Source of the DNA: an uncultured Thermoplasmatales archaeon
Lineage (GTDB): Archaea; Thermoplasmatota; E2; DHVEG-1
DNA length: 64,000 bases
Reading direction: 5' to 3'
NCBI GenBank assembly: GCA_964612945.1
Contig: CAZTFR010000005.1
Coordinates: 1,716 to 65,715, forward strand
Shown: in pieces, positions 21,421 to 42,168 of the stretch
Layout: each line of letters starts with the position of its first letter
How positions within the stretch are numbered: the first letter of the stretch is position 1
The notes under the pieces: model-generated
What the model was told of the DNA's origin: nothing
Databases searched by the model: none
The model's input: only the letters and a program-made list of their open reading frames with translations
Program-made: the position numbers and the translations under genes

Positions 21421-23838
21421 TTAGCTGATTACAAACGGACCTAAAGACAACGCAAAGGAAGTAAGATTTTCACGTCCAACAGAGACACAGATTTGAATTC
21501 TACCAAGCCCAAACTGAGCAGTCTCTACCGAACCAATATCTCCACAGTTCAAATCATACAAGGCAATCGTTTTTGGATGACGAGGATACAAAAGAATACC
21601 CTCTAAAGCAGTAACCGTAAGTGTAATATTCATCTCAGAAACAGCAAAATCACCCATATTAATAACTTCACCAAAGAGTTTTATCGGAGCTGTTTTCGTC
21701 CGCAACAAAAGACTGGTGACGGTGACCTGTTTAGCCGGAGACCAGTCACTTTGCACCCCATACGAATCACGAGCTTTTACTCGAACAAGATAGCTGCCTT
21801 GTTCTTTCCATAGATGAAAGGATTTCGGTTCAGAACGCCATCCACTTGTTGTTCCATCACCCCAATCAAAAAGATAAAACACCTCATCACCCTCCGGATC
21901 AGAAACCGCTGAGGTAAAAAACGTATGATTCCTATTAACAGAGAGACCTCCTGGCCCCGCAGGGGCGCCTGGAGTTTCAGGTGGCGCACTGAGTTCTATG
22001 ATCAGGGTGGGATCTCCAAAAAGATTTAACCCATAGTAGACCCATCGCATACATCCTTCATTAATTCGATAGAGGTTATCCTCCTTGGAATCCTGATTTG
22101 CCTGACCAAGCGAAGTAAAACTTTCTTCAAATATGGCATCATAAAACTCCCGATGAAACCGCTGTGAAGGACCATCTGTTGTTCCTTGTGCACCCCAGCC
22201 ATACCGCGCATTCCAAATCCCTGCAAATGCCGCATGAGCCGTTTTCACCGTAAACGATTCTGCAATACAATCTACACCAGTAGGATTATCAAATCCACCA
22301 GCCATACAACCCTGTGAATACATAAAAGCGGGATACTCATTTGTAAGCTCTTGTTCTACATCAAGGATAGAAAGTTTCATATTTGTTTGATAAAACGCAT
22401 GTCCATCATGATTAATTAAACCGACATTCTGATTTATCCGGTCGATGAGTTCGGATTTCGGCCAATTATTATCAGACCAGTTTCTATCATACAGCTTATC
22501 GATTGCATACACGCCAGAGGGGATACCCATAGTAGTATACCAATACTTGTCACACTGATCGATCAAGTCATCCATCGAATTTCCACCCCATCGTGCCACT
22601 CCAGTAAAACCAAGATCCTCCCCAACCATCAACGCCGTACTAAGACAGGGATCTTCAACGGTGAGATAGGTACAGGTTTTTTCAACAAAATTCTCGACCT
22701 CACTGAGCGTATCAACACAGGCACGTCCCACATAGACTTCAGCAATAAGATCAACATCGCCACCTTCATCGCCATCATCTGGTTCACCCCATTTATCATC
22801 ATTATCATAGTTAAACGTTCCATCCAGGCATCCATAGTAAAAATCCGAAGGCATCTCCATGACGTCTCCACCAGACCATGCCTCAACCCAAAGTTGCTGA
22901 GCAGGGACCTGCTCCGTATCCCCACCGAGTAACACATAATCTACGCCTTGATCAAGATACTCCGTTGAGATATATTCTCGAATCGCTTGGGGTGTTGTCC
23001 TATTTATTTCTTCTATTGTAACAATAGATGTCTGTAAGCCTTGCTCTTCATGGACAGATTTCAAGGGCAAAAATCCCTCCTTCAGTTGTTCTGTAGTAAT
23101 AATGAGAAGATGATGAGGTGAAAACCCCGTAGTTCGTGGCTGATCTGCGGAGAGCGGATAACTTTGAAGTTGCTCAGGGTTATCAACTCTGTTTTGTACA
23201 GCAAGATAGTCCCCATAGCTGTCTCGATACAGAGGTGAAAGGTTTTTATCTGTCGAAGATGTCTGTATGGTAAGCTGAATATTAGAGGAAAAGCAAAGTG
23301 ACTGATCAGAAGAATCATATACTATGGGTTTCAACTGAAGAACTAGCAGTTGATAGCCCCTGAAGTAATAGGTGCCAATAACCCTATACGAGCTACTATC
23401 AGACGGTGACGGCTCTGAAATAGCTGGTATAACTCGATTCTTAACAGTGCAAAAAGGTACAGGATATTCTGCATTTTTCAGACGAAATCCACTTCCTAAC
23501 GATATTGTTTCATCTGAAGAACACCTGATATCTTCTAGCTGCGAGTTTGCCGGAAGCAAAATGATTGCTGATTGAATAGGTAGTAGGGGATGTTCGGGAT
23601 TTGCTGACTGACTTATACCCGGTATCTGCACGAAATCATAGGGTTGATCATCAATTATCTTTTGGGTGAGGATGGGGTCTGAAAATATATACTCAAGCTG
23701 TATCGAATTTGGTGGCAATTGAGATTTTTTTAGACCACTGATGGATATCGATGAACCAATGAAGAGGAAGATTAAAAAAGTAGCAAGAAGGAGACTGAGA
23801 AAACAGCCCTGTTTTCTCATGTCCTGCCACCAAGGCAT
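21421..23838 (-). CDS. Secreted peptidase C25 (gingipain-like cysteine protease) with a PKD domain and a C-terminal type-A module
   Basis: Signal peptide present. YVLLGGDTEQVPAQ, SDFYYG and VYVGRACVDTLSEV match the gingipain YVLLIGD..IPAK / IGRFSCES motifs. Catalytic His (INHDGHAF) and Cys (SQGCMAGGFD) are retained. PKD motif FDWGDGTTSGW. C-terminus ...FGLGRIQI...SLGPFVIS. Confidence 0.75.
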   Translation of the reverse strand: MPWWQDMRKQGCFLSLLLATFLIFLFIGSSISISGLKKSQLPPNSIQLEYIFSDPILTQKIIDDQPYDFVQIPGISQSANPEHPLLPIQSAIILLPANSQLEDIRCSSDETISLGSGFRLKNAEYPVPFCTVKNRVIPAISEPSPSDSSSYRVIGTYYFRGYQLLVLQLKPIVYDSSDQSLCFSSNIQLTIQTSSTDKNLSPLYRDSYGDYLAVQNRVDNPEQLQSYPLSADQPRTTGFSPHHLLIITTEQLKEGFLPLKSVHEEQGLQTSIVTIEEINRTTPQAIREYISTEYLDQGVDYVLLGGDTEQVPAQQLWVEAWSGGDVMEMPSDFYYGCLDGTFNYDNDDKWGEPDDGDEGGDVDLIAEVYVGRACVDTLSEVENFVEKTCTYLTVEDPCLSTALMVGEDLGFTGVARWGGNSMDDLIDQCDKYWYTTMGIPSGVYAIDKLYDRNWSDNNWPKSELIDRINQNVGLINHDGHAFYQTNMKLSILDVEQELTNEYPAFMYSQGCMAGGFDNPTGVDCIAESFTVKTAHAAFAGIWNARYGWGAQGTTDGPSQRFHREFYDAIFEESFTSLGQANQDSKEDNLYRINEGCMRWVYYGLNLFGDPTLIIELSAPPETPGAPAGPGGLSVNRNHTFFTSAVSDPEGDEVFYLFDWGDGTTSGWRSEPKSFHLWKEQGSYLVRVKARDSYGVQSDWSPAKQVTVTSLLLRTKTAPIKLFGEVINMGDFAVSEMNITLTVTALEGILLYPRHPKTIALYDLNCGDIGSVETAQFGLGRIQICVSVGRENLTSFALSLGPFVIS

Positions 23839-26357
23839 ATCAGATTTTGAATTCGTTGAAGCATAGTACTAGCCCACTGAAAAAACGGCGTAAGAAATGT
23901 CTCGAAGCGCTGGATAATTCGATTAAATATTGGAAACATCGGATGGGAGTTTTGATGTGATGTGGAAAGGGTGACTGGTACTGAACAGAAATCAGATATG
24001 TTATGTGAATTTTCTATAACAATTTCCCCAGTGAAATTTGATTGTTTTTCATCAGGTGCTGTGACAACGACAAAAACGCTGAATTCTTGACCGTCTGCTT
24101 GAAGGTCTTCACCATGTTCTGGGAAAAACTGCCAAGTTCCCCAATCGGGAGTCTCAATGATTTCCCAATCAAGACGAGAACCAGTTTCGCCTATATTTTT
24201 AACGACAAAACTCCCTGTTTCAGCAGTTCCAGCGACCATGGTTTCAAACACAAGGTTTCCTTCGCAGCTGAGATCAGATCGCGGTTGCCGGGTGGTAAAC
24301 CGCCAAACAGGGCTTTGCATAAATCTGTTTGAATCATCCCAAATTACAACCCGCCAATAGTATTCTGATGAATACGCAAGAGCTCCTACTTGATATGAAG
24401 ATTCCTCTTGTGCTATGGATACCACCGGTGGTGGATTAGTGGTTCCAAAGTAGACATCATAGGTAAGCCGCTCCTCAGGATCAGGATCACTACCGATCCA
24501 TTGGAGAACAGGGTTGATTGTATGGATATGTGCTCCATCTGCAGGACGCGGGTCAGTGGGTTGATGTGGTGGAAGATTAATTCTAAAGTGTTGCTCGGGC
24601 GTTGTCGTAAGTTTTCCTCTTTTATTTTTGTAGCAAATACTCCAACTAACAACAGTGCCTTGTGCAATCGTTGGATTCGACCAGGTAAAATTTGTCCATA
24701 CCCACGTGTCCAGAAGAGTGAAAATCATAGTGGGGGAACCATATTTCCGTCCACTTTTATGTTCGTTTTCTTCCTCTTCGCCATAGGTTGCAATATTATG
24801 AAAACCATGACGATAGAAGTTGTTTCGTTCTGTTTGAATCCATGCATCACTGCGCGCGTCATTAAAGACGTGGAATTCATCAAAATTGCCAGAGAAGAAT
24901 TTTGTTTTATTAGCATTTGCTCCTATGAATAATCCGTTGGTACTGGCGCTGAGAGGTTGAGTTAGATTCACCTCATTTTCTAGTATTCCATCGACAAAAA
25001 TGGACATTTTGTGTTGAAGGGTATCAACTCGCATAACCACATGTGTATCATATGATATAGTGCGATTCTCTGAGGCCACTGATTCGGTAGTAGTATCTTC
25101 ATAGGTGACTGTTGCAAGGTATTTTCCAGAATAGTCTCCCTGATTGGGTACGTCCATAGCTGGATTTTGTGATCCATTAGAAGAGAATATAGGACGACCA
25201 CTATACTCCACGCCCAGATTTAGCGTAATGGTATATGATTTATCTCTAGGAATGGTGAAGTTATTTATTTCTTTGAAATTATATCCACTAGTATCAGCAT
25301 CCCAACCGTTGCCAGTACTATCTGTGTCATCTATCATATGATGAACCATGAGGTAATCATCATTCCAGACACCTGCTGGATTTTCCTGACTCTCGCATTC
25401 AAGATTACCATAGTACATGTAAAGTTCTGTATCATCTGTTGAGCTGAGATATGGAACCCGTACCCAGGCGTTGAGTGATTTTCGATTAAAGGTTTCAATT
25501 TCATGATCATAGCGTATACTATTTGTCATATCGGTGAAGACAAAATCATCAGCATCTGCTTGTGCCTTGTAGAAATCAATGGAGGTACATCGTATTCGAA
25601 TGGGAAAATCTTCAAAATCATCAAGTACTTCAGTATGATCAATGGTAATCTTTTTTCTATATTTCCATGCTGGATCCCACCATTCTCCATCGAGATGATA
25701 CCAGGTGCCATCCTCATTGACATTTAAGACAGCCTCTTGCAGACCATACTCATCTTTTCCTTGTGCAGAAAGTACGACAAAATTCTCCGGGTTGATCTTT
25801 GATTTTGATTGCTGTACATTTTGATACTGTGGCGGTTTATTCAAAATAGTAATCGTTGCATTATACGTGTCTGGTTCAAGAAAATCTCCAGAAGTTGCTC
25901 CATACCTTGTGACTGGGACAAATGAAAGGTTATGTTCTCCATCGGTGGACTCCTGAAAGACTCGGACAATAATTGTGCAGAGCTGCCCTTGTCCAAGGGG
26001 CAGACCTTCGCCGGGTGTACCCTCTGATTCTGAAAACCAGATTTTAATACGCCGACCACCCGAAGGGGGTGTTTTTATGATATAATTATATGGGTCTTCA
26101 TCTACACAGTTATCAAATTTCAGATCATACATATCTATTTCAGATTCATTAAACACGATATGCATGTTTACCCAGTCAACTTCCTGACTCCAGTTACCAA
26201 ACAACGGGATTTCATGATCAATAACACCTGCACGAGCCGTGGTGTGTTGAATGCGGACACTATCCGCTTCAGGTTCAAATTCTGCGCTTCCAAGAACATT
26301 AGAAAATACAAGAACAATCATCAATATCCCGATAAAGAAACTCTTTGCTTTTTTCAT
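23817..26357 (-). CDS. Secreted surface protein: DUF2341 + LamG/concanavalin-like + FN3-like domain + C-terminal type-B module
   Basis: Signal peptide MKKAKSFFIGILMIVLVFSNVLGSA. WWDPAWKYRKKITIDHTEVLDDFEDFPIRI is the DUF2341 signature. LamG-like segment (…LFIGANANKTKFFSGNFDEFHVFN). FN3-like segment (YYWRVVIWD...PVWRFTT). The C-terminus contains FVVKNIGE. Confidence 0.7.
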   Translation of the reverse strand: MKKAKSFFIGILMIVLVFSNVLGSAEFEPEADSVRIQHTTARAGVIDHEIPLFGNWSQEVDWVNMHIVFNESEIDMYDLKFDNCVDEDPYNYIIKTPPSGGRRIKIWFSESEGTPGEGLPLGQGQLCTIIVRVFQESTDGEHNLSFVPVTRYGATSGDFLEPDTYNATITILNKPPQYQNVQQSKSKINPENFVVLSAQGKDEYGLQEAVLNVNEDGTWYHLDGEWWDPAWKYRKKITIDHTEVLDDFEDFPIRIRCTSIDFYKAQADADDFVFTDMTNSIRYDHEIETFNRKSLNAWVRVPYLSSTDDTELYMYYGNLECESQENPAGVWNDDYLMVHHMIDDTDSTGNGWDADTSGYNFKEINNFTIPRDKSYTITLNLGVEYSGRPIFSSNGSQNPAMDVPNQGDYSGKYLATVTYEDTTTESVASENRTISYDTHVVMRVDTLQHKMSIFVDGILENEVNLTQPLSASTNGLFIGANANKTKFFSGNFDEFHVFNDARSDAWIQTERNNFYRHGFHNIATYGEEEENEHKSGRKYGSPTMIFTLLDTWVWTNFTWSNPTIAQGTVVSWSICYKNKRGKLTTTPEQHFRINLPPHQPTDPRPADGAHIHTINPVLQWIGSDPDPEERLTYDVYFGTTNPPPVVSIAQEESSYQVGALAYSSEYYWRVVIWDDSNRFMQSPVWRFTTRQPRSDLSCEGNLVFETMVAGTAETGSFVVKNIGETGSRLDWEIIETPDWGTWQFFPEHGEDLQADGQEFSVFVVVTAPDEKQSNFTGEIVIENSHNISDFCSVPVTLSTSHQNSHPMFPIFNRIIQRFETFLTPFFQWASTMLQRIQNLICLGGRT

Positions 26358-29300
26358 TTAATGTAACCCCTCCCAATTGAACAGAGTGAAAGTGCGATCG
26401 ATAAGACGTTCGAAAAAGAGTTGAAAAATGGGGAAATCTTGAAGATGAGTATGAACCCATTGAAGAAGAGGATGAGTAGGTGTGAATTGACTTGAAGGGA
26501 CACTAATAGAAATTGGGATATCACAGAAATCATCGGGGTCTTCTACATTTCGTACTCGTAAGGTTTCTTCATAAAGTACATTTGGTCTAAGCGGTAGTTC
26601 AACAATAACGTTCACCTTGCTTTCATCAAGGGTAGATGTGTATCCATTTTTTGGAAGAATTGTCCAGTTTCCCCAGGTTGGTATGTTTTCGGTTTCCCAG
26701 GCCAGAAGCGATAGTGGTTCACCAATATTCTTAACTACAAATTCTCCCGTTATGGTAGCGCCTGGTTGAATATCAGAAAATTCCAGATCGCCTTCACACT
26801 GTAAATCAGAGAGCCGTGGGATCAACTTTGGCTCCAACAGAATATCAACGTCATTGTCTATCTTCACAGATGCCACAGCTTGAAGACCAAAATCAGTAAT
26901 CGAGCTGGATCGATACTCAAAGGGAACGTTATCGACGAGCTCTTCTGGTGTGGACCATGTCTCGCCGCCATCATGAGTCACAGAAGAGTAAAGGATATTG
27001 TCTCTCATAAAGGTACAGACAAAGGTGGTTCCATCGACATGACGGACATCAGGAAATGATTCATCAAGAAGACTCGTTGCAATAGGGGTAACTTCAAGAT
27101 GATTAACATTGCCATGATAGCAGATAATGTCATCATTGTCCTTTTCAGTGGTCACCGCAAGGATCACAAGTTTTCCATTATCTGCAGCAATCGAAGGATA
27201 GCTGAGATTTCCCTCGCCTTCGATAAAGTAGAGTTCTCCATGAAGCGAAAAATCAGCGAAATAGTCCTGTCGAAGGATCAGTCGCCATCCATCTATTTTA
27301 GTCCATGTATCATAGATACTCCATACATCATGCCAGCTATGATCGATGTCTACATCAGTATGGTAACACTGATCATAATGGTAATGGTTCTGATATTCTT
27401 GATACGTGCTTACTACGATTTCATCTGGCCCGGTTTGGTAAATCAAGGAGGGTAAATTAACACCAGAATTATAGTATCCCGGTTCATTTACCCCGTTTTT
27501 ATCAGAGATAAACGAAGCAACACCAAAACGCCAATTCTCCTGTGTGTTGTCGCATGCAATCTCGATATCTCGGATGGAATGGTAACCAAGTGTATTAAGA
27601 GGATACCTTGAAATATCATATGATTCGTAATCCGTTGGATCGTCTGTTTCAAGAAGATAAAATGTTCCAGCATTTCCATCGGAAATAGATGGAATAAGTG
27701 TTGCAAAGAAACGGTTGGTATCCCATCGTTCAATAGCTGGATAATCTTCACCAGTAGTACCTTCAATAACACTGCCGTCATCGTATGTTCTTCCATCATC
27801 GGTAGAATATGTCCATACGGTTTTATTAGACTCTTCATCTCGATAGGCAAATAGATGTACACCGGATAACGATCTGCCAAGTGCAGGATGTAATTGATCA
27901 CCTGCAAGAAGCGGCTGAGGTATGCTGCCTTCTTTCACCAAGGGAGAGACTGCTGCATTGTGTGCAACAGATAGTTTTTCGGTGACTGGCTCCCAGTCAA
28001 TCCTTTCTACAGACACATCAGCATACTCAGTGTTTGGATCATGAGATACCGGCAGGGTAACGGAAAATGTCGCCCATGTACTTTCAACCTTGTAGCTATC
28101 CTGAGCTTTCGCACGGACTACATACTCACCTTTCTCAGACCAGCTATGAGAACGAGCTGCCTGTTGTCCTGAATTAAAGGGGCCGAAAAACTCAACATCT
28201 GAACCATCACCCCAGTCAACATAATACGAAATATTCTCATTTTCCGGATCTGTTGCCTCAAAGGTAAACTCATGCTCAACGTTGATTTTACCCTCAGAAG
28301 AACCTCTAATAATTGGTGAAGTTGGTCGAAGACTATAGATTTTTTCACCAGCAATATCACGATTCTCATTTTCCACCTGAAAGAGAGCTCTGACCCCCGC
28401 ATCACAGATATCTGCAGTCTTATATTCAGAAACAATAGTTTCTTCACCAGAAAACGATGCCTCTTCACTCCAGGTGCGACCGTTATCATATGAAAGTGAT
28501 TTATATAACACACCGTCTTTTTCAAAAGAGCAGATAAATACAGAATGCTCAACATGACGTAAATCAGGATATTGCTCATCACTTGAAGAGAAAGCAATGT
28601 CTACTCGTTTGAGCTTATTTGCATACGAGCCGTTCCCATAGAAGCAGACAATATCATTGTTGCCCTGTTCATCAGTCTCAGCTACAATAACGATAGAATC
28701 ATCATAGGCTGAAATAACAGGGTTTTTGATATTTCCTTCTGCGTTTTCAACTGTATAAATAGATCCTTGATGGGAAAGATCATTAAAGTTGTCTTTACGA
28801 TATACAAGTTTTATAGTCCCTTCATCATCCCAGTCATAGACTGCCCAACTATCCTCTGTGATAGCATCAATATCTGCATCAGTATGCATACATCCCATGA
28901 AATCGTCGTAGACATTAAGATGCATCAGATCAGGATCACTTTTATCTTTGTAGGCAATGTAGGGCCCATCGAATACATCCGGATATCCACAGCAGCGATA
29001 TTGACTGATGACAAGGGAAATGATACCAAATTCATGATCGTTTTGAGAGTTATCACAAGCGATCTCGGAATCAACCATGTTGAAAAAACCGCCCTTACTT
29101 AGATCCCAACGAGAGAGATCATATGTTCCATACTCCACGGGATCTGTTGTTTTAAAAAGATATAAAGCTGCACCTTCTGCATCATTTTCATCTGGCACCA
29201 TGGTTCCATAAAAGCAGGAGTCCGCCCAATGTTGAATGGATGGATAATCTGCTCCTGATCCTCCAGCAAGATACCGTCCTACACCAAAGGTTTCTCCGTC

Positions 29301-29642
29301 ATCTTCTGAATAGGTCCAAATGACCTGATCGAAATCATCTTCTTGATGTCTATAGGCTACCATTTGAATTCCTCCCTCAAGACGGCCGATTGCAGGATGA
29401 GTTTGATTTCCAGGTCCATTAACTGATCGGTCGGTGGATATAAAGGAGAGGGATCCCTCATTAGAAGATAACTGGACCGTGAATTGATTAGGCATGATAT
29501 CATTAATTTCTTTAATTGTAAACTGTTGTTTAGTTTGTCTATTGCTTTGAATGTGTGTTGCAGTAGCAAAGCTTGTCATTAGAAGACAGAGTGTAACGGC
29601 AAGCAGTACTCCTTTTTTAAACATGATATTGTTTTTTCTCAT
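26358..29642 (-). CDS. Secreted BNR/Asp-box repeat protein (sialidase-like beta-propeller) with internal duplication, a PKD domain and a C-terminal type-B module
   Basis: Asp-box repeats SEDDGETF, SYDNGRTWS, STDDGRTY, THDGGETWS. The two halves are clearly homologous. PKD motif YYVDWGDGS. The start is chosen at the Met preceded by GGAGG (9-nt spacing). The track ORF extends to 29678. Confidence 0.7.
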   Translation of the reverse strand: MRKNNIMFKKGVLLAVTLCLLMTSFATATHIQSNRQTKQQFTIKEINDIMPNQFTVQLSSNEGSLSFISTDRSVNGPGNQTHPAIGRLEGGIQMVAYRHQEDDFDQVIWTYSEDDGETFGVGRYLAGGSGADYPSIQHWADSCFYGTMVPDENDAEGAALYLFKTTDPVEYGTYDLSRWDLSKGGFFNMVDSEIACDNSQNDHEFGIISLVISQYRCCGYPDVFDGPYIAYKDKSDPDLMHLNVYDDFMGCMHTDADIDAITEDSWAVYDWDDEGTIKLVYRKDNFNDLSHQGSIYTVENAEGNIKNPVISAYDDSIVIVAETDEQGNNDIVCFYGNGSYANKLKRVDIAFSSSDEQYPDLRHVEHSVFICSFEKDGVLYKSLSYDNGRTWSEEASFSGEETIVSEYKTADICDAGVRALFQVENENRDIAGEKIYSLRPTSPIIRGSSEGKINVEHEFTFEATDPENENISYYVDWGDGSDVEFFGPFNSGQQAARSHSWSEKGEYVVRAKAQDSYKVESTWATFSVTLPVSHDPNTEYADVSVERIDWEPVTEKLSVAHNAAVSPLVKEGSIPQPLLAGDQLHPALGRSLSGVHLFAYRDEESNKTVWTYSTDDGRTYDDGSVIEGTTGEDYPAIERWDTNRFFATLIPSISDGNAGTFYLLETDDPTDYESYDISRYPLNTLGYHSIRDIEIACDNTQENWRFGVASFISDKNGVNEPGYYNSGVNLPSLIYQTGPDEIVVSTYQEYQNHYHYDQCYHTDVDIDHSWHDVWSIYDTWTKIDGWRLILRQDYFADFSLHGELYFIEGEGNLSYPSIAADNGKLVILAVTTEKDNDDIICYHGNVNHLEVTPIATSLLDESFPDVRHVDGTTFVCTFMRDNILYSSVTHDGGETWSTPEELVDNVPFEYRSSSITDFGLQAVASVKIDNDVDILLEPKLIPRLSDLQCEGDLEFSDIQPGATITGEFVVKNIGEPLSLLAWETENIPTWGNWTILPKNGYTSTLDESKVNVIVELPLRPNVLYEETLRVRNVEDPDDFCDIPISISVPSSQFTPTHPLLQWVHTHLQDFPIFQLFFERLIDRTFTLFNWEGLH

Positions 29643-29646
29643 ATCT

Positions 29647-32600: not shown

Positions 32601-35592
32601 CCTTTGTTTCAGCTGTTGTTCCATCACCAAAATCCCAAGACCAAGTGTATGGTACAAATCCACCAGATGCATCTGCAGAGACTTGGGCTACTTCTGCAAA
32701 TTCGACACCAAACATCGGTGAATTACTGTCAGATATCTGAGCAGAGACTTGTTCGTTTTCTGCAAGGGTAACCGTGATAGTATCCGAGCTTGTGTGTCCT
32801 TCCCGGTCAGTAACCGTTACTTTTTCAGTGAAAATACCTGCTTGGTTGTATGTTTTTGTCGGATTTTGAAAAGTGGAGATGGTTCCATCAGAAAACATCC
32901 ATTTCCAGCTCATTTCCCCAAGACCACCAATTACTGAGGGATTGAAAATGAGAGATTCTCCAGTGAAATTGAACCTGTTGGTTCCTGCATCTACGGTTGG
33001 TAAAAAAGATGATATAAGTGGCAGTTGATCTGCGGGGTTTTGAGAATCAGAAGGTATTTGATATGGTGTATCACCGATGCCGTCGTTGTTGTTGTCTCCG
33101 CCTGTGTAATCGCTCCAGTAGTTTCCATTAGTTGTAGTATTCCAGGTTGTTTCTCCATTGTCATAGGCTTGATATTCTTGATTGTCGATGAAATCATTTC
33201 CGACTACAACGTTCTGAGTGCTATCTGAGTTGATACGAATTCCTATGGTATTGTTTTTAATAATATTATTCTGAATGGTGCCCTCTGATATGGCGGAAAA
33301 TAATAGTCCACCACCGTCATTTCGAGATTGCATATGTTGTGTCTGACTATCAGGTATTGAGCGCGTGGTTAGTGATAGATCTTGTTTGAGTTTCAGTTGT
33401 CGTTGTATTTGAGATTCTTCCTGCTTAAGTTGCTGGATTTGTATGTTTTTTGTAAAGATATTATCAACGATGTGTATGGTATTTGAATTACCCTCTGCAA
33501 TCAGTCCCCAGTTGCAGCGTGATATCCTGCTGTTTTGTATGGTGATATCCTGTGAGGAATCGATTTGCACACCTGTTTGGGCATTGTCAATAGAACAATC
33601 ATTGACTAGTATGTCATTTGAATTTCTAATTGATAGGCCAACTATTCCTTCAGCTATGAAGAGGTCTTGTATTTTGACATCTGCTGCATCGGTGACACGG
33701 ATAACCGTATCTGCAGATGACTTGGCGGTAATTGTTGTTTGTTCACTTCCAATTCCTTTAAGAGAGATACTTTTTGAAATAGCGATGTTTTCTTTAAAAG
33801 TGCCTCCGGGGATTAAGATGGTATCCTCATCGTGTGCTTCATCTATTGCGCTTTGAATTGAGGTGTATTGTTTGTGTGTTCGAATGTTTTCAACAACCGG
33901 GTCACCAACTGACAGTGTGGTTTCAAAGGGGATGAAATTGTGTGCTGTGACCGTAACAGTGATATCTGTTTTTGATTGAGGGGTAACGCTAAAGTGTGCA
34001 TCTCCAAGTTCGTTTGTTTGACACACTTCAAATAGGTCATCGTCGTTTTGTAAACAGACGGTGGCATCAGCAACACTGCCTCCAGTTAATTTTTCGACAT
34101 GAATTGTGAGTTCTTTTGGTTGGCCAAGGGTAAGATCAGTATCTCTGGTTGCTCTCATATATTGGGGTATATCTGTCCAGATGGTCATGGCGGGATCGCC
34201 AAGTAAAAGAAACATTGCAGCTGCTGCTTCTCCTTCTTTGTCATATTGGTCGATAATGGTGTGTTTGGCCTCGTTGAGAAGATCACCTAGAACGTAATTT
34301 TCTTCCTTAAATAATTGTCTGTAGATTTCAGTATCAAAAGTGTTAAAAGGAATGCCATAAAAGGAATCACTAAAACCGTAGGTATAGTCCCATTCGAAGA
34401 AATATTCTGTTCCACCGATCGATGCCACGGCACCTCCAGGATATTTATTCATGAGTGCCTCACCAAGGCTGTCGGTTTCATAATCGATATCATTTAACCA
34501 ATAAACAATGTTGAAAAAGACAGGTGTGCGATTGAAATTATAGAGATGCTGGACATGTGGCCAATCCATCCAAGCTTCGTATTCACCAGGTCCACCGATG
34601 ATCCATGCTAGTCCATTGGGGAGTGCTTGTCCTCGGTAGTTGACAATACCCCGTCCCTCATCGATAGCCAGTGAGACATAACGGCTGGTTCCATTTTCAC
34701 CTTTGAGATATGCTCGGTCGCATGTAAATCCTGCAGGTTCTAAATATTCAGAGATAATAGCATCTTCTGTTTGACCGAATAAATCACCATTTCCTGCTAT
34801 CATCAGATTTTTCTTCAGCCAGTTATCTCGTGGTGGATTTTTTTCATAGGCAAGTATTTTTTGGATCTGATGTTCGGCTTGTTCTTCTGTTTGAACAGAA
34901 AGTCGGCCAATTGCTACATCGGCATAGGGATCAATTAAACCGTAGGTTGGATGTTCCATACAACTATACCAGTAATCGCTGAGAACGCCATTGTCTGTAT
35001 GATATAGCCACTCTGGAAATTTATAATGCTCCCAATATTTTGCAGGGATATATTGAACATCACCGATGAAAAGAACGTATTCGAGATTACCTTGCAAATA
35101 TCGTTCGGTGATGATATCTTTTATATCTTGTGGGTTGAACGTATCAATGGGGACGATTTCTGTTTTTTTGCCTGTTTTTTGGCGCCATGTTGCAAGTGTG
35201 AGAGCTTGGTTTTGAAAGTCTGGATGGGTAATAATAAGATAGGTGCATCCTTGTACATTTACAAATCGATGAAGGATATCTATGTTTTTGGTCTGATAAA
35301 AAGTACCGTTTTTATGATAGATGTGCGCTGATTCCTTTTTACCTGTATTTGATAAAACGGGTATTTGAGTCTGCAAATTTGTATATCGTGTGGTCGGATG
35401 AGTGGTTTCAGAATCTAAATGTACGGTTACTTGATTTTTTTCCTGAACATCCCCTGTATCTGTAGGAATACTTGTTGTAGGTTGAGTTATTGGTTCATCA
35501 GCCATACTAGGCGATAATGAAAGACTTGATACAATCAAGACCAGCATTAGTAAAAATACGGATATTTTTCCAGAAGCATGATGGTTCATCAT
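29647..35592 (-). CDS. Giant (1981 aa) secreted protein: degenerate C25-like domain + parallel beta-helix (PbH1/NosD) repeats + at least four PKD domains
   Basis: Signal peptide present. YVLFIGDVQYIPAK and AIGRLSVQTEEQAEHQI match gingipain motifs, but catalytic His and Cys are substituted. PbH1 repeats (…NDCSIDNAQTGVQIDSSQDITIQNSRIS…). PKD motifs WDFGDGTT (twice), WEFGDGS and YEWDYENDG. Confidence 0.8.
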   Translation of the reverse strand: MMNHHASGKISVFLLMLVLIVSSLSLSPSMADEPITQPTTSIPTDTGDVQEKNQVTVHLDSETTHPTTRYTNLQTQIPVLSNTGKKESAHIYHKNGTFYQTKNIDILHRFVNVQGCTYLIITHPDFQNQALTLATWRQKTGKKTEIVPIDTFNPQDIKDIITERYLQGNLEYVLFIGDVQYIPAKYWEHYKFPEWLYHTDNGVLSDYWYSCMEHPTYGLIDPYADVAIGRLSVQTEEQAEHQIQKILAYEKNPPRDNWLKKNLMIAGNGDLFGQTEDAIISEYLEPAGFTCDRAYLKGENGTSRYVSLAIDEGRGIVNYRGQALPNGLAWIIGGPGEYEAWMDWPHVQHLYNFNRTPVFFNIVYWLNDIDYETDSLGEALMNKYPGGAVASIGGTEYFFEWDYTYGFSDSFYGIPFNTFDTEIYRQLFKEENYVLGDLLNEAKHTIIDQYDKEGEAAAAMFLLLGDPAMTIWTDIPQYMRATRDTDLTLGQPKELTIHVEKLTGGSVADATVCLQNDDDLFEVCQTNELGDAHFSVTPQSKTDITVTVTAHNFIPFETTLSVGDPVVENIRTHKQYTSIQSAIDEAHDEDTILIPGGTFKENIAISKSISLKGIGSEQTTITAKSSADTVIRVTDAADVKIQDLFIAEGIVGLSIRNSNDILVNDCSIDNAQTGVQIDSSQDITIQNSRISRCNWGLIAEGNSNTIHIVDNIFTKNIQIQQLKQEESQIQRQLKLKQDLSLTTRSIPDSQTQHMQSRNDGGGLLFSAISEGTIQNNIIKNNTIGIRINSDSTQNVVVGNDFIDNQEYQAYDNGETTWNTTTNGNYWSDYTGGDNNNDGIGDTPYQIPSDSQNPADQLPLISSFLPTVDAGTNRFNFTGESLIFNPSVIGGLGEMSWKWMFSDGTISTFQNPTKTYNQAGIFTEKVTVTDREGHTSSDTITVTLAENEQVSAQISDSNSPMFGVEFAEVAQVSADASGGFVPYTWSWDFGDGTTAETKDAVHVYSNPGKYTLTLTVTDAVDTNYTCEQHIIVRSIYNVQKDKYYYTLNDAVYQYEMQDDHTVIVSQGIYPVDRAVCLFGDNSGTHGDAIRNYRYRGTIIGEDKHTTIVTNSDSFDGDKLFAIGRGSPHLTVSNFTFLLQDGCEMGVGVWCWHDVIKNNIFTTSKTNPPTHATTGIFLKMNYNHIEDNIFTNLTFGVHRPEKKDFYFEVQDINDNTFIGNEVGIKLDWLAWGIKINGNSFIENNRGIYSYKGLLNKIQRNTFVRNKEAAIYLEHSMANYIDHNNFISNTPDQAVDFLDSSGYNFWNVDYPGGGNYWNDFDEQDEGAFDNFTGESQNILGSDGIVDRDNETGGLNPYNITNPYSTTFFSQDRYPLIVPWKPSMDPVANFTYKEKSLVVEFNASTSYDPNDPIKSYTWDFGDGTTGTGQIISHEYDWYGHYNVTLFVTSNQTAANVTYLVKVDPPLPNQIFLEDFNGGKIDTETWINRGAQWWTTKGHDWWSNVPGHDVEYNRYSEIHTTHSEPGWCELEMKKPLDLSSYETVYFDMWFYVSREVDGKWEGLHCEVYDGSSWHGYWSVTSVIPNILNRWYHIEKWKLPEKFCTSQFKLRFWVLSSNLHKNIHTDDILLTGIPKEGNNSLPQPNFSFTPEQPSISERVSFTDLSTDSDGTVENWYWEFGDGSISHEQNPTYHYEESDTYVITLSVADNKEAVSSIQKPISVKSNDPDNVAPIADGNGPYLAYVGQSIHFNATASYDPDGDIRLYEWDYENDGIYDEWSVDSAWLNHSYTTPGNYTAVIRVTDSDGTRSTDTMNVTIVAPPEPTIYFFDDFESGQFINWTLDESDDWVIGNETVEDLPDKPSSNQVATCTKQIGKYGEVPLLMNHTVNLSNCYQAQLSLWRFVDDRHSYEYLKVYGWNGTNYREIFHWTNNQGDDDEWHFASIDLSDEFLIDDFKLKIAAKNVGYGVGDVVEIDDVTIEGIPLLQED

Positions 35593-35740
35593 ATTTATCC
35601 CCTTACTTCTATTGTTTAGACGACTATTTTATATATAGTTTATTTGGAATTCATCGAATTAATTATGAATATAATATAAAAATGATGATATGTATTATAA
35701 CTCTTTGTTAGGATACGAAAAAAAGAGAGGAGATATGATG

Positions 35741-38700
35741 TTACCCTATCTCTAGTTGAGGATTAACAACAAAAGGGAAGAACACAAAGGCAGTTGCTGT
35801 TTTTTGAATCGTTGTTGAATCAGTTGTGGCTTGCAGAGTTATTGTGACTCTTCCAAGACCGAATAAGAAAATTCGGACGTTAACAGATTCATCCGGTTCT
35901 AAGTTTTGAATGTGCCCTGTTTTCTGACGTCCAAGCGGTAAGAGCAGAAGTCCATTGTTTATTTCACATGACCAGTTAATGTCATGTATTGTGTCTTCGC
36001 CAGTATTGCTGATCGAGAGGGAAAGCCCTATTCCGCCGGTGATATTTGATATGTTGAGTTGCTCAGGTTTATATTGTGCGGGTGTAACAAACTGCCAGAG
36101 ATTGCTTTCGTTTTGTTGTCCCATACTATCTTTTGAGACAACCTTCCAATAGTAGGTTGTTGCTTCTTTAAGGTTATTTGTTTGATAGAAGGGTGTATCG
36201 ATATTATCAACAACTTTTGATGGAGTCGTGGTTGTTCCGAAGAAGACATCATATGTTGTGCTATCATCAGGATCTGGATCTCCTCCAATCCAGCTGAGAA
36301 GAGGACTATTGAGTGAAGAGATGGCTTCATCTTCTGGTATGGGTTTGTTGGGTTGATTTGGTGGATTATTACTCCACGTTATAGGATTGATAAGTGGATA
36401 ATGATCGTGGTCGTTTTCGGAGGGTTTATAGTATCCTTCAACTTCATAGGGTGTATCTCCTATGCCGTCACTTCCGGTCTCATTTTGTCCCGGGCCTGAA
36501 TAGTTATCTGACCCGTTGTAATCATCCCAATAGTTTCCGCCGAGAGGATACTCTTCATTCCAAAGATTATGGTCACGTGACCAAGCATTGCATTGATTGT
36601 TAATGAAGTTGTTATAATGGACTTTGTTCTTGTAGGTATCCCAGTCTGTTTCCACTCCGACATCATTGTTTTGGATGATATTTTCTGTTACCTCGCATCT
36701 GGAGGTAAAACAGTCGGCATCTGTGGTGGTGTAAAACATGACGCCGATACCGTTGTCTTCTATTTTATTATGAATAATTGGATTATATGCGGTGTCGATA
36801 TACCAGATACCATATTCGAGGTTGTTTCGTATAAGATTTTTAGATAGAGTATTGTTATGTTTGTTTTCCCAATCGTTTTCACATTCTATTGCCAGGCCAT
36901 ATTTTTGATTATTATCAACGATATTTTCTGTGATAATATTATGACACGATTGCTCATATGCCCACAAACCACCTCGTGAGTTATTGACAAATTTGTTTTG
37001 AACTACGACGTTACGTTCTGAGTTGAGCAGGGTAATCCCACGATAGTTTTGGTAGAAGGTATTACCAGAGAAGATGTTGTAATCAGAGGCGTATGCAAAT
37101 ACACCCATATAAAAAATCGGGCCGATTACATTTCGCGTTATAACATTGTAGTTACTTCGTTCCCGATCATTTCGATGATGTCCAGATAAGGAGATACCAA
37201 CTCGAGCGTTCTGAATATGGTTATGAGCAATAAAGGTATTATGTGCTGCACAGTAGATAGCTGCTAATTCGGTTATGTCATCACCACAATTCATCCGAGT
37301 CCCGGTGTTTTGAATCGTCAGACCCATAATTGAGACATTTTCTGCAATAATATAAAGAATTGAGTCCTTATCCCACCCATCAACAATCGTTGTATCTCTA
37401 TCTTCGCCTACAATAGTAATTGTCTTCCATATTGGCGAGTTGACCTCATGATAATACCCTGGTTTTACAACAATGGTGCCACCGTTTTTCACAGAGACAA
37501 TGGCGTCATGGATGGCTTCATATTTATCATATCCAAATCCAGGTGTTGTTTGGTCAAAATCATCATCAACAATTACTCTCTGAGGTACTATGGTTGGATC
37601 CTTTTTTGAGCTTATAAGTGGTTTTTTATCCTCTGCATTGCTTCCACTGATCTGATAGGGCGTATCTCCGATGCAATCACCATCCTTATCTTCTCCATCG
37701 TAGTCATCCCAGAAATTACCACCCTGTTGAGTATACCATTGAGTATTAAGGCCCTGATCATCTACGTTTTGATCATTGTATTTTATGTTATTGTTGGTTA
37801 CAAGAACGTCTGACACTGCATTTACATAGACTCCTTTTTGTCCGTTTTGTATGCCAAATCCGGTAACTGTTACTTTGTCGCAATATACACCAACAGCGTG
37901 ACCTTTAGTCATTCCATCGATGATTGTTGAGGTTCGGTTTTCACCGATTAATTCTATCTCTTTATCAATAGTAATGCTTTCCCTATAGATGCCATCTCGA
38001 ACAAAAATCCGATAGCCATCACTTGCATTGTCAATGGCATCTTGAATGGAGGTATAATCAACAAGGTAGTTTATTGGTTGACTATCCACAATAAATTGTT
38101 CGTATCCTCCGATGAGAACTATTTCTTTGTCACTATAGAGATATTTTTGAGTCTTAACTTTAAGATATACCTCGTATTTTGCCGATGATAAAACGCTTGT
38201 ATCAAAAGTGCATAATACTCCATCGATGACAGTTTCTGTAGAATTTACAAGTTCTATCCACTCCGAAACTCCACGTTTTGTATAACTGACGGTGTAATAT
38301 TCAAAGTCTTCAGACCAAGCCGATCCTGTGATATCAACAATGGGATCGCTTTCAATCACGATTTTATCAAGATTGGCAATTACGGGGTCTCGAATGATAG
38401 CATCATACGCATTAATTCGACCTCTACCAATCGGAACGGATGAAGATACCTCATCACAGGCATGTTTCAAAATCGTTTTTATCATATCAGGTTTTAAGGC
38501 TGGATTATTTGCAAGTAGCAGAGCAACGAGTCCTGCAGCATGCGGACAGGCCATACTTGTTCCACTTGCAACAGTATAATTCTCTCCGACATCAAGTCCC
38601 ATCGAGGTTCCTTCTGCCTCGAGTGAAAGAATACTTACGCCTGGTGCAGCAACGTCAACTAATTCACCCCAATTAGAAAATGATGCTTTTTTATCATTAT

Positions 38701-39850
38701 AATCGGTTGCAGCAATAACAATTGTTTCATCCATGTTTTGAGGAGTATAATACGATACATCATCATTTGCATTTCCAGCGGCAAAAACAACAACACATCC
38801 TTTGTTATGGACATATCGCACTGCAGATTCAATTACTGGAACGGATTCGACTCTACTGGAATAACTCCAGCTATTACTGACCACCTGTGCGCCATTATCT
38901 ACTGCCCATCGGAGACATTTAGCCAATGTATCAGTATAAGCAGATCCGCTACTGCTAAACCCTTTGACTCCCATAATCTGTGCATGCCAGTTGACACCTA
39001 CGACGCCCACAGAGTTGTTTCCCATACCTGCGATTGTTCCAGAGCAATGTGTTCCATGACCATGATCATCTTTAGGATCACCGTTGTTATACGCATAATT
39101 TGCGCCATAGATATTATCTACAAATCCATCATTATCTGTATCAGTGCCATCAAGTACTTCATCTTCATTAATCCATATGTTATCAACGATATCCTCATGG
39201 GTGTAATCGATACCGGTGTCAATAACGCCTACTACAACATCATGACTTCCCGTGCAAATATCCCATGCTTTGGCAGTATCGATGTTATGCATCCCATATA
39301 GGTCTTTGTAATTTTGATTCCAACTCCCAGATGTGTGATAATAGGGATCATTGGGTTCAAGGCAAAGCGTCGCAATATAATTAGGTTGAGCTAGTTCTAT
39401 CTCTGGTAATTGTTCCCATTCTCGTACTTCATTTTCAACATTAAAAGTGTCAGTATGGATCTTCACCCATCTATCAAGCCCATAGCAAGAGTTATCCGAT
39501 ATTTTCAACTGCGTCGTTTCGAATATGAAAGAAACATTTTCAACTGAAGAAAGATCTGGATTTTTGTTTTGTAATGCTTCAAGAAATATCTGTGTTTTAT
39601 CGTGTGTTGAAATATCAATATCCGATTGAATTTTTGCTAGGATTACACCGGGTTCACACAAGTTCTTATTCTCTTTTAAACGTTTGATACTATTGGTTTG
39701 GATTTTTTTATCAATATATGATTTTTGATAGATGGTCCGTTTTGAGTTATGCGGTGCTATCGATTCAAAAGAATTTGTTTCTATTGCGACAACAGAGGTA
39801 GCGGTTAATATCAGCATACAAATAGTTACTACTACAAGTTTTTCTTTCAC
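35741..39850 (-). CDS. Secreted subtilisin-like serine protease (peptidase S8) with PbH1/NosD repeats, an FN3-like domain and a C-terminal type-A module
   Basis: Signal peptide present. D/H/S triad motifs VGVIDTGID, HGHGTHCSGTIAG and GTSMACPHAAG. PbH1 repeats and an FN3-like segment (YYWKVVSKD...WQFVT). C-terminus …FGLGRVTI…FVFFPFVV. Length 1369 aa. Confidence 0.9.
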   Translation of the reverse strand: MKEKLVVVTICMLILTATSVVAIETNSFESIAPHNSKRTIYQKSYIDKKIQTNSIKRLKENKNLCEPGVILAKIQSDIDISTHDKTQIFLEALQNKNPDLSSVENVSFIFETTQLKISDNSCYGLDRWVKIHTDTFNVENEVREWEQLPEIELAQPNYIATLCLEPNDPYYHTSGSWNQNYKDLYGMHNIDTAKAWDICTGSHDVVVGVIDTGIDYTHEDIVDNIWINEDEVLDGTDTDNDGFVDNIYGANYAYNNGDPKDDHGHGTHCSGTIAGMGNNSVGVVGVNWHAQIMGVKGFSSSGSAYTDTLAKCLRWAVDNGAQVVSNSWSYSSRVESVPVIESAVRYVHNKGCVVVFAAGNANDDVSYYTPQNMDETIVIAATDYNDKKASFSNWGELVDVAAPGVSILSLEAEGTSMGLDVGENYTVASGTSMACPHAAGLVALLLANNPALKPDMIKTILKHACDEVSSSVPIGRGRINAYDAIIRDPVIANLDKIVIESDPIVDITGSAWSEDFEYYTVSYTKRGVSEWIELVNSTETVIDGVLCTFDTSVLSSAKYEVYLKVKTQKYLYSDKEIVLIGGYEQFIVDSQPINYLVDYTSIQDAIDNASDGYRIFVRDGIYRESITIDKEIELIGENRTSTIIDGMTKGHAVGVYCDKVTVTGFGIQNGQKGVYVNAVSDVLVTNNNIKYNDQNVDDQGLNTQWYTQQGGNFWDDYDGEDKDGDCIGDTPYQISGSNAEDKKPLISSKKDPTIVPQRVIVDDDFDQTTPGFGYDKYEAIHDAIVSVKNGGTIVVKPGYYHEVNSPIWKTITIVGEDRDTTIVDGWDKDSILYIIAENVSIMGLTIQNTGTRMNCGDDITELAAIYCAAHNTFIAHNHIQNARVGISLSGHHRNDRERSNYNVITRNVIGPIFYMGVFAYASDYNIFSGNTFYQNYRGITLLNSERNVVVQNKFVNNSRGGLWAYEQSCHNIITENIVDNNQKYGLAIECENDWENKHNNTLSKNLIRNNLEYGIWYIDTAYNPIIHNKIEDNGIGVMFYTTTDADCFTSRCEVTENIIQNNDVGVETDWDTYKNKVHYNNFINNQCNAWSRDHNLWNEEYPLGGNYWDDYNGSDNYSGPGQNETGSDGIGDTPYEVEGYYKPSENDHDHYPLINPITWSNNPPNQPNKPIPEDEAISSLNSPLLSWIGGDPDPDDSTTYDVFFGTTTTPSKVVDNIDTPFYQTNNLKEATTYYWKVVSKDSMGQQNESNLWQFVTPAQYKPEQLNISNITGGIGLSLSISNTGEDTIHDINWSCEINNGLLLLPLGRQKTGHIQNLEPDESVNVRIFLFGLGRVTITLQATTDSTTIQKTATAFVFFPFVVNPQLEIG

Positions 39851-40062
39851 GTGTCTTACGCCCCGTACAGATGTAGTGTTTTTTAGTTGCTCATCAATAT
39901 GAATAATGAGCAGTAGAGAAAATATATATAAGTTATATATATAAATTTTATTAAATGTTCACATTCTAATGTTCTTGTTTAAAAAAAGTTTACATAAATT
40001 ATATAAATGATTAAATTTACATTATAGTGGGAATAGACAAAATAACCTTCACCGTGGTAATT

Positions 40063-41703
40063 ATGAGAATGAATACAAAATTGAAAGTACTAATAAGCAT
40101 ACTGCTGTGCATATCTTTTTTTGCATCGAGTGCAACAGCAATAATACCAGAGATACCAGCTGATACAGAGCCCGTACCTTCACTTTTCGGTACGATTGGA
40201 GCATCTGAGCAGATGAGTCTCCCAGTTGGACCTCGGGGTGAACCTCCGGATGTATTGTGGAACAATACATTTGGAACATCGTTTCATGACGAGAAAGCAA
40301 GAGATATTAAAAAAACCAATGATGGTGGATATATTGTAACGGGGTATGCCCAGCCAGTTGGAGCAGATGCGGATGCATGGCTCTTAAAAGTTGATGCTGA
40401 GGGTAATAAACTCTGGAATACCACCTTCGGTGGCTGTGGATCTGAAATTGCCTATGCAGTATTGCAAACCGACGACAGCGGATATATTCTAACCGGAGAA
40501 TCACGTTCTACAGATACAAGCGGAGATGGTTTTGTCATTAAAACCGATAGCTTGGGCAACATGCTCTGGAATTTCTCCTTTGGAGTACCTGGGGGAGAAG
40601 ATTTTGGATATAAACTAATAGAATCATCAGATAACAACTACATTGTCGTAGGGACCACGAATCTATTAGCGACGCAAGAGATGTTAATAGGCAATGCAAC
40701 TCTTCTGAAAATTGATCAACAGGGTTCACTGATATGGCAAAAAACATATGGTGGAGAAACGATAGATGCAGGATTCTCCGTTGATCAAACCGATGATTAT
40801 GGATTCATCATCAGCGGATTTACCTACTCGTATGCGACAGGTGAGGCCTATGTTGATGCATGGCTGTTAAAAACAGATGCGCAAGGAAACGAACTGTGGA
40901 ATCTCTCTATTGGATATGAATATGCTGCTGAAGTTACCTATGATGTAATACAAACTAATGATGGAAGCTATGCACTGACCGGGTACAGCAGCACAAATGG
41001 CGATATGGATGTCCTTCTAATCAAAACAGATGGAAAAGATTCGCATGAAATCTTTACCTACGATCGATCAAAATTGGATGTGGGGCAGAGTTTTGATCAA
41101 ACCGACGATGAAGGGTTTATCATCGTTGGAACTACGATGAATTGGTATGATAACGAAGGTGGATGTGTTCCAGGCTGGGATCATATTGATTTTTGGATAT
41201 TCAAAACAGATAAAAGCGGAAAGCTTGAGTGGGACACATACTATGGAGGGAAATATGCTGACACCGCATATGCAGTTCAACAGACATCAGATGATGGATT
41301 TATTGTTGCAGGATATTGTATCAAACTTGTAGACGGTAATCAGTATACACGAGACGCATGGCTGATGAATTTTGGAACAAAAGAAGAACCCGAAGTGACG
41401 ATACAAGACGTGAAACCAGGTATCGGATCACTAAACATAACCTTTGAAAATACAGGTGCAGTGTTATGTGGTTGTGCGTGGAATATCAGTGTTCAGGGCG
41501 GCATTCTAAAAAACATTAATGTTTCAGAAAAAGGTGCAGTCTATGGTCTACCAGCCGGAGAGTCTGTATCTGTGGATACAGAAAAACCAATCTTTGGTCT
41601 AGGAAAAATTTCAGTTGAGATTACAGCCTCCTATGCCCGTCCCTGGTCAGGATCAGCATTTGTCATTGGGCCATTTATACTTCATATTCAATCCACCAGT
41701 TAA
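40063..41703 (+). CDS. Secreted beta-propeller protein (SBBP-type repeats: DGGYIxxGYt...DAWLxKxDxxGNxLWNxxFGG) with a C-terminal type-A module
   Basis: Signal peptide MRMNTKLKVLISILLCISFFASSATA. At least seven copies of the DGGYI-TG-...-DAWLLK-D-G-LWN-FGG repeat. C-terminus …ENTGA…IFGLGKISV…FVIGPFILHIQSTS. The start is chosen at the ATG; the track ORF begins at an upstream GTG (40027). Confidence 0.7.
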   Translation: MRMNTKLKVLISILLCISFFASSATAIIPEIPADTEPVPSLFGTIGASEQMSLPVGPRGEPPDVLWNNTFGTSFHDEKARDIKKTNDGGYIVTGYAQPVGADADAWLLKVDAEGNKLWNTTFGGCGSEIAYAVLQTDDSGYILTGESRSTDTSGDGFVIKTDSLGNMLWNFSFGVPGGEDFGYKLIESSDNNYIVVGTTNLLATQEMLIGNATLLKIDQQGSLIWQKTYGGETIDAGFSVDQTDDYGFIISGFTYSYATGEAYVDAWLLKTDAQGNELWNLSIGYEYAAEVTYDVIQTNDGSYALTGYSSTNGDMDVLLIKTDGKDSHEIFTYDRSKLDVGQSFDQTDDEGFIIVGTTMNWYDNEGGCVPGWDHIDFWIFKTDKSGKLEWDTYYGGKYADTAYAVQQTSDDGFIVAGYCIKLVDGNQYTRDAWLMNFGTKEEPEVTIQDVKPGIGSLNITFENTGAVLCGCAWNISVQGGILKNINVSEKGAVYGLPAGESVSVDTEKPIFGLGKISVEITASYARPWSGSAFVIGPFILHIQSTS

Positions 41704-41748: not shown

Positions 41749-42168
41749 CTATCGATGAAGCCAATCACGAGCGATCCGATTGATCCTCATGTCCTCTACA
41801 AATCCTGATGCTAACAGTTTCTTTTTAATTTCTTCGATAGAAAGTGTGCTCTTTGAAATATCTGCTATAATATCCCATCGTGCTTTTGTGCCCCGTTGAT
41901 AACTTTTCGATTCGGTCATCACAAGATCAACGCGTAATGCTGCTAGCTCTGCAGCAATCTTTGCAAGACATCCCGGGGTGTCTCCGAAGTCAAGTTGTAT
42001 TTGAATGAGATCTTTGTGATCTGCGTAGATAGGACTGATGATAAGGGTATTGGTTTTTTTATCAAGACTGAGAAGAATTTCGTCTCCTTCTTTTAAATCC
42101 AAGGTTTCCCTATATTCAGTTGGAATAACCAGTCGACCACGAGTGTCAAGACGAATTACTGAGTTCAT
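41749..42168 (-). CDS. AbrB/MazE-type (SpoVT/AbrB swapped-hairpin) DNA-binding domain fused to an ACT-like domain
   Basis: N-terminal VIRLDTRGRLVIPTEYRETLDLKEGDEILL is the SpoVT/AbrB beta-barrel signature. The C-terminal GCLAKIAAELAALRVDLVM is ACT-like. An oligo-T tract (A-run at 41705-41714 on +) follows the stop. Confidence 0.55.
   Translation of the reverse strand: MNSVIRLDTRGRLVIPTEYRETLDLKEGDEILLSLDKKTNTLIISPIYADHKDLIQIQLDFGDTPGCLAKIAAELAALRVDLVMTESKSYQRGTKARWDIIADISKSTLSIEEIKKKLLASGFVEDMRINRIARDWLHR

Follow-up and report, generated by a model that had tools for sequence, protein, structure and literature searches.

The 64,000-nucleotide stretch analysed here, referred to as the window, comes from an uncultured Thermoplasmatales archaeon (GenBank assembly GCA_964612945.1, contig CAZTFR010000005.1, positions 1,716 to 65,715) and carries, between 21.4 and 41.7 kb, an island in which six large genes encode exported proteins, among them a C25 peptidase, an S8 subtilase and a beta-propeller-like repeat protein that share a C-terminal domain (hereafter the tail, or type A ending). 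The C25 gene (21421-23838, minus strand) encodes a protein of 805 residues in which Pfam located Peptidase_C25 (residues 245-612) and PKD (630-705) domains behind a signal- or anchor-like N-terminus; its tail, the most divergent of the three, spans residues ~707-805 (21424-21720, minus strand). The S8 protein (35741-39850, minus strand; 1369 residues) consists, according to Pfam and NCBIfam, of a signal peptide, Peptidase_S8 (203-465), NosD/right-handed beta-helix repeats and an FN3-like domain, followed by the tail at residues 1262-1369 (35744-36067, minus strand). The third open reading frame (ORF; 40027-41703, plus strand), with a probable ATG start at 40063, encodes a signal peptide, SBBP-like repeats and a tail at residues ~454-558 (41386-41700, plus strand); its product is identical in sequence to the 546-residue cluster representative P0002 and has weak NCBIfam matches to SBBP and delta-60 repeats and no match in Pfam. 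A signal-like hydrophobic segment is present at the N-terminus of all three proteins.

A preliminary description of this DNA, made from the letters and their translations alone, held that the three proteins end in the same C-terminal module of about 85 residues, and pairwise BLASTP comparisons of the tails bear out the shared ending (S8/propeller, E=1e-8; propeller/C25, E=8e-6; S8/C25, E=4e-5). The module is longer than described, with an alignable length of ~100 residues and pairwise identities of 26-38%, and its coordinates were corrected to those given above. The same description had envisaged that a proper alignment might contain no conserved columns; the three-way alignment has 15 invariant ones, N-x-G, F-G-L-G and P-F among them. 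The C25 copy is without the GG motif and has NMGD in place of NTGx. Matches of the A3 profile to the C25 tail (E=2e-16) and the propeller tail (E=3.4e-26) ended 0 and 3 residues before the stop codon, respectively.

An independent profile, made from 142 members of the family found outside the window and from no window sequence, was run on the six-frame translation of the window. It retrieved the S8 (E=6e-31), propeller (E=3e-24) and C25 (E=2.7e-8) tails and only these three stretches; the next match in the six-frame translation had E=1.8, leaving no fourth copy in the window. Because a profile that contains no window sequence singles out exactly these stretches, the similarity reflects true homology rather than a general leaning towards beta structure, and the three tails are copies of one homologous ~100-residue domain. 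The low pairwise identity is the only point that speaks for a chance resemblance without true homology, a reading to which we give practically no credence and which the pairwise E-values, the independent profile and the 1400 related cluster representatives described below rule out.

Predicted fold, family and lineage of the tail domain

AlphaFold2 modelling of the S8 tail from a 50-sequence alignment gave an eight-strand all-beta structure with a mean predicted local distance difference test (pLDDT) score of 95.9 and a predicted template modelling (pTM) score of 0.85, and the divergent C25 tail was modelled with a pLDDT of 92.6 and the same strand order. The tail is confidently predicted to be an eight-strand immunoglobulin-like (Ig-like) beta-sandwich. 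The terminal hydrophobic stretch (FVFFPFVV, LSLGPFVIS), initially described as a separate hydrophobic patch, was modelled by AlphaFold2 as the last two strands of the sandwich with a G-P kink between them, and since it belongs to the predicted fold it would be neither a membrane helix nor a short peptide signal. The absence of a transmembrane helix and of a basic tail, by contrast, was correctly described for all three tails. Tail sequences end 0-5 residues past the 8-residue hydrophobic strand with no basic cluster, and the mean net charge of the domain is -4.

The motifs named from the three window sequences (N-x-G, FGLG and GPF) proved to be those conserved family-wide, with N21 at 100%, G23 at 96%, both glycines of FG(L/F/I)G at 99% each and G-P-F at 73-83%. 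The conserved positions are mostly turn glycines, together with N21, the tryptophan W32 and core hydrophobics; the N-x-G, GG and FG(L)G motifs correspond to turns and the (A/G)F-V-L-G-P-F-V-L ending to the last, kinked strand pair. In most strands hydrophobic residues alternate with polar ones. The segments at 40-44, 67-69 and 94-101 (F-V-L-G-P-F-V-L) are hydrophobic at every consecutive position and, judged from their sequence, may form an extra packing or interaction surface.

Foldseek searches of the PDB returned only generic Ig-like domains (E >= 3e-3, template modelling scores of 0.5-0.6, among the 50 matches listed), including complement C3 MG domains, transglutaminase 2 C-terminal barrels, ASF1, TRAP-beta and the Methanosarcina CARDB domain 2L0D. 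The last of these, a domain of a surface protein, was also the sole match in a sequence search of the PDB (E=1.1). No Pfam or NCBIfam model covered the tails when the three full window proteins were scanned. The preliminary description had considered that the tails might match a known Pfam domain, which holds in a weak form: the S8 tail scanned alone matched CARDB (PF07705) with 13.8 bits (E=0.067), below the gathering cut-off of 22.7, and CARDB was matched neither by the other two window tails nor by the three full proteins at E<=0.1. Weak CARDB matches were found in 32 of 50 family members (best E=7.9e-6) and weak DUF11 matches in six, and the CARDB-like N-x-G strand noted earlier is indeed present in the module. 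Given the generic Ig-like neighbours, 2L0D as the sole PDB sequence match and the weak CARDB matches, we place the tail as a divergent branch of the CARDB/E-set Ig-like superfamily that is without a database model, with kinship to CARDB at the superfamily level only.

A profile made from the three tails was run over 1.84 billion cluster representatives and matched 1400 of them at E<=1e-3, 103 of these with E<=1e-10; each match stands for a cluster at 50% identity. A word-indexed protein search found no match with the three tails and, with the 50-member alignment, nine proteins only, and an exact look-up of the propeller protein returned no record. Among the 150 best profile matches, 140 had the domain ending <=5 residues from the protein C-terminus; the other ten ended farther from it, six of them by >15 residues, and two proteins carried tandem copies. 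The position was equally strict in the 35 genomic loci described below and the window, where 51 of 55 domains ended <=5 residues from the stop codon. The related representatives P0003 (residues 218-428) and P0017 (87-297) have two tandem copies of a divergent form in which (R/F)GFG replaces FGLG and the GPF ending is lost, an exception to the rule of a single terminal copy; the two copies of P0003 follow a thioredoxin domain, the sole Pfam family reported for that protein.

The cargo is diverse. Upstream domains among 91 proteins comprised PKD (32), PQQ-like or other beta-propellers (16), CARDB (8), BNR (7), Y_Y_Y (6), C25 (3) and S8 (2), with GH25, M28, NosD and others as single cases, and the tail usually followed directly after a PKD or FN3 stalk. 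A signal-peptide-like N-terminus was recognized in 75 of the 129 matches that start with M, and those inspected among the remainder look like truncated gene calls. Among the tail-bearing proteins of the loci, 45 are complete, and none of these had a C-terminal transmembrane-like segment. Stand-alone copies, consisting of a signal peptide and the domain only, were also found (P0014, P0099, P0101, P0149, P0152-P0154 and P0157).

To locate tail genes in genomes, one genome per species of the Genome Taxonomy Database (GTDB) was scanned with two peptide patterns taken from five typical members, a pattern-limited design that makes occurrence elsewhere possible. The scan yielded 35 loci, all in Thermoplasmatota or Thermoplasmata metagenome-assembled genomes, from cold seeps, soils, wetlands and sediments, and every family member with a named organism is a Thermoplasmatota archaeon. 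Plasmid records contained no match to the family consensus (tblastn) and a scan of viral contigs found no tail relative, so that these searches offer no sign that mobile elements or viruses employ the domain.

Full-length homologues of the C25-PKD-tail protein with the same architecture occur in locus L017 (41% identity over 789 residues) and, with similar values, in L008, L015 and L019; the homologue in L013 has lost the PKD domain and kept the tail. Relative to the window protein, the catalytic domain of these orthologues is 53-55% identical, the PKD domain 32-41% and the tail 24-31%. The propeller protein has a full-length tailed homologue in L006 (35.5% identity over 470 residues). Such homologues point to a Thermoplasmatota genome as the probable source of the window.

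Gene neighbourhoods and a second C-terminal ending

Four minus-strand genes of the island overlap or abut in an operon-like array that runs from 29647-35592 through 21421-23838. Its first gene (29647-35592) encodes a 1981-residue protein that combines C25 with NosD/beta-helix repeats and five or more PKD domains and has neither a type A nor a type B ending (the latter is described below); a PKD and BNR gene (26358-29678) and a LamG and DUF2341 gene (23817-26357) follow, and the C25-PKD-tail gene is the last. The S8/NosD gene lies just upstream of the array on the same strand, and the propeller gene is transcribed divergently from it.

The island is flanked by housekeeping genes at 20.1-21.2 kb (an ArsR-type regulator and CDP-archaeol synthase) and, on the opposite side at 41.7-45.3 kb, by a MazE-like gene, tRNA-Ala, ribosomal protein L15 and a Sec61-type SecY. 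The MazE/AbrB-like gene is a small one of antitoxin fold (41749-42168, minus strand) at the island edge, between the propeller gene and tRNA-Ala. A gene for an EMC3/TMCO1-like protein, an archaeal insertase of the YidC/Oxa1 type (45923-46600, plus strand), lies in the conserved SecY-adenylate kinase cluster adjoining the island, a placement that is ordinary archaeal synteny. Archaeal markers in the window are CDP-archaeol synthase, SecY with a Sec61 plug, a family B polymerase, exosome subunits and a proteasome alpha subunit. Across the 35 loci and the window, tail genes are grouped with each other and with further genes for secreted proteins, up to four tail genes lying in 12 kb.

A sortase-like partner gene, the search for which had been proposed together with the idea of a single export or attachment pathway, was not found: Pfam scans of the larger ORFs of the window contained no sortase, archaeosortase, exosortase or rhomboid, and the sole membrane protease among the scanned ORFs was an M50 site-2 protease (56385-57521). 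Archaeosortase or exosortase genes were not recurrent across the 35 other loci either, and after clustering of all locus ORFs no non-tail gene family recurred beside tail genes in more than five of the 35. The recurrent neighbours were housekeeping genes (IF-2B, aldolase, PHP, urocanase, KaiC-like ATPase, ABC ATPase). With no sortase-like gene in the window, no recurrent neighbour and the existence of stand-alone, tandem and internal copies, the notion of one dedicated pathway gained no support from these analyses.

The C25 genes number 12 and are spread over 11 of the 36 regions made up by the 35 loci and the window; seven of them carry the tail, an association that is suggestive and not systematic. 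In L036, a JGI metagenome contig, a stand-alone protein of 131 residues made of signal peptide and tail (P0153; 8001-8396, plus strand) is encoded 1.4 kb downstream of a tail-less C25 gene (469 residues; 5143-6552, plus strand), with a 100-residue ORF between them; this is a single case.

A second ending, here called type B, is present at 23817-24350 and 26358-26900 (both minus strand; BLASTP E=4e-25, 36% identity), on the two ORFs between the type A genes of the window. It consists of an x-N-I-G-E beta-sandwich-like region followed, at the extreme C-terminus, by a helical-looking motif of ~30 residues that approximates L..L.ERFP.AFPILR.LLG(Y/L), and no Pfam or NCBIfam model covers it. The motif recurs directly after a PKD-like domain on exported, tail-less proteins whose cargo differs, in five further loci of Thermoplasmatota: L001 (1508-3541, minus strand), L005 (7388-8164, plus strand), L013 (1142-2944, plus strand), L016 (1227-2927, minus strand) and L021 (945-2462, plus strand, and 5268-7556, minus strand). 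Co-occurrence of the type B motif with a type A tail was seen in 0 of 52 cases. From its sequence, type B is a candidate short sorting or anchoring signal. Since the secreted proteins of these clusters end in one of two mutually exclusive elements, their distribution modestly supports the view that the position after the PKD stalk may be reserved for a terminal targeting or anchoring element.

Possible roles of the tail and comparison with known systems

Unrelated exported cargo share the tail, usually after a PKD or FN3 stalk and without another anchor, and on these grounds we consider a non-covalent surface-retention or adhesion module, acting at the cell surface or on a substrate, to be its most likely role, a tentative preference held with somewhat less than even confidence. 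Position and cargo make an anchoring or docking role plausible. Sec-exported proteins carry the CARDB-related tail at the C-terminus, usually after the PKD or FN3 stalk, and the tail would hold the exported cargo at the cell surface or on the substrate through non-covalent binding.

Several observations weigh against retention or adhesion. No conserved polar ligand site is evident in the family conservation profile, in which the conserved residues are almost all glycines, with one asparagine, one tryptophan and core hydrophobics; the C25 tail evolves faster than its catalytic domain (24-31% versus 53-55% identity); the restriction to Thermoplasmatota rests on a scan limited to two patterns from five members; and many secreted proteins end in Ig-like domains, which may be purely structural. 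Some of these points agree with a possible though less likely role, that of a passive end-domain, an Ig-like cap or spacer that would stabilize or solubilize multidomain exported proteins without targeting or binding. Conservation confined to fold determinants with no obvious binding site, a tail that changes fast compared with the catalytic domains, structural neighbours that are no more than generic Ig-like domains and kinship with CARDB, itself very frequent as a filler in the surface proteins of archaea, are all in keeping with such a cap. A filler would nevertheless be expected anywhere in a protein and in tandem, like PKD, whereas the tail is terminal in ~93% of cases and almost always single; stand-alone secreted copies exist, and the consecutive hydrophobic segments at 40-44, 67-69 and 94-101 hint at an additional interaction surface. 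Were the tail a structural cap only, it would be a routine new domain subfamily.

Of lower rank is an improbable role as a cleavable C-terminal pro-domain, aiding folding or secretion or conferring latency and removed after export, comparable to the bacterial pre-peptidase C-terminal (PPC) domain or to subtilase C-terminal extensions. The presence of the tail on several peptidase families (C25, S8, M28) and the frequency of C25 as cargo (seven of 52 tail genes in the loci) would fit such a role, but most cargo is non-peptidase (PKD-only proteins, PQQ-like and other propellers, BNR, GH25), the stand-alone copies have nothing to mature, PPC (PF04151) is not matched, and the first domain positions are variable with no conserved cleavage motif apparent at the N-terminal edge of the domain, the part profiled being the domain and not the upstream linker. 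Ranked behind it, and quite unlikely, is a sorting signal analogous to the C-terminal domain (CTD) of the type IX secretion system (T9SS). In a single-membrane archaeon, such a signal would be recognized and removed by a dedicated enzyme, possibly a tail-less PorU-like C25 protein from the same gene clusters, and the cargo coupled covalently to a surface glycolipid or lipoglycan or to an S-layer component, in an attachment pathway peculiar to Thermoplasmatota; type B would then be a second, parallel signal. The logic of the T9SS CTD is recognizable in a ~100-residue Ig-like domain at the extreme C-terminus of diverse cargo that includes gingipain-family proteins, in the C25 genes of 11 of 36 loci, some of them tail-less, in the L036 stand-alone tail gene 1.4 kb from a tail-less C25 and in the second, tail-less C25 gene (29647-35592) of the operon-like array of the window. 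Against this stand the lack of any match to TIGR04183, TIGR04131 or any other sorting model at E<=1, scores of 46 and 84 bits for the window C25 proteins, far under the PorU cut-off of 420, an archaeal host with no outer membrane to cross, the lack of a neighbour conserved across loci, the tandem, internal and stand-alone copies, and a variable N-terminal edge of the domain with no conserved cleavage site apparent. Chance resemblance, refuted above, comes last in this ranking.

Uncultured Thermoplasmatota such as the Thermoprofundales (MBG-D), which dwell in sediments, are thought to live on detrital protein, and the extracellular C25 and other peptidases that Thermoprofundales encode are highly expressed in situ (PMC6461988). 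Being lineage-restricted in every locus with a named organism, strictly C-terminal and common to more than 1000 secreted protein families, the tail is a concrete candidate for a device that retains exoenzymes at the cell in Thermoplasmatota. It also offers a useful marker with which to delimit the surface proteome of this phylum, and a dedicated profile would improve annotation, as most members are now called 'hypothetical'.

Searches of a literature library turned up no description of this tail domain. The fold is known; what is new is the variant, which no database model covers and which stands out for its unusually strict confinement to the C-terminus and to one lineage. Several known elements were compared with it and set aside as its identity. 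The three window proteins (E<=0.1) and 50 family members (E<=1) matched no NCBIfam sorting-signal model, in agreement with the early view that the ending is not PGF-CTERM, LPXTG or another known short sorting signal. The PGF-CTERM/archaeosortase, LPXTG and PEP-CTERM signals are likewise C-terminal on secreted surface proteins, and the G-P-F of the tail superficially recalls P-G-F. Despite this tripeptide PGF-CTERM was rejected, in that no model matches and the tripartite signal is missing (no transmembrane helix, no basic tail), the GPF being placed inside a beta-strand predicted with pLDDT >90. LPXTG was rejected on the absence of an LPXTG-like motif, transmembrane helix and basic tail from the three translations. 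PPC resembles the tail as a beta-sandwich at the C-terminus of secreted peptidases; it was rejected, with no Pfam match in the full proteins or in 50 domain sequences (E<=1) and with most cargo being non-peptidase. PKD (PF00801/PF18911) was rejected as the identity of the tail, the PKD domain of the C25 protein lying upstream at 630-705 and none being found among 50 tails.

The tail was also compared with the T9SS CTD and with CARDB. Like the tail, the T9SS CTD of Bacteroidota (TIGR04183/TIGR04131) is a folded domain of Ig-like type that sits at the very C-terminus of varied secreted proteins, C25 proteins of the gingipain family among them, and it is lineage-restricted. The tail differs in that no T9SS CTD was among the 50 Foldseek PDB matches listed for it and that its archaeal host lacks both an outer membrane and a T9SS; membership was rejected on the archaeal host and on the lack of a match to either model, in the window proteins at E<=0.1 and in the 50 family members at E<=1. 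CARDB (PF07705), represented by the Methanosarcina acetivora MA_4588 domain (PDB 2L0D), is a ~100-residue Ig-like sandwich of prokaryotic cell-surface proteins and shares with the tail an N-x-G turn after the second strand. To our knowledge it has no established function. The second half of the tail, with its FG(L)G turn and GF-V-L-G-P-F-V-L ending, is not CARDB-like, and tandem arrays of CARDB may lie anywhere in a protein, whereas the tail is single and, in ~93% of cases, terminal. In its presumed function the tail most resembles a terminal CARDB/Ig adhesion domain, and in position it resembles the T9SS CTD.

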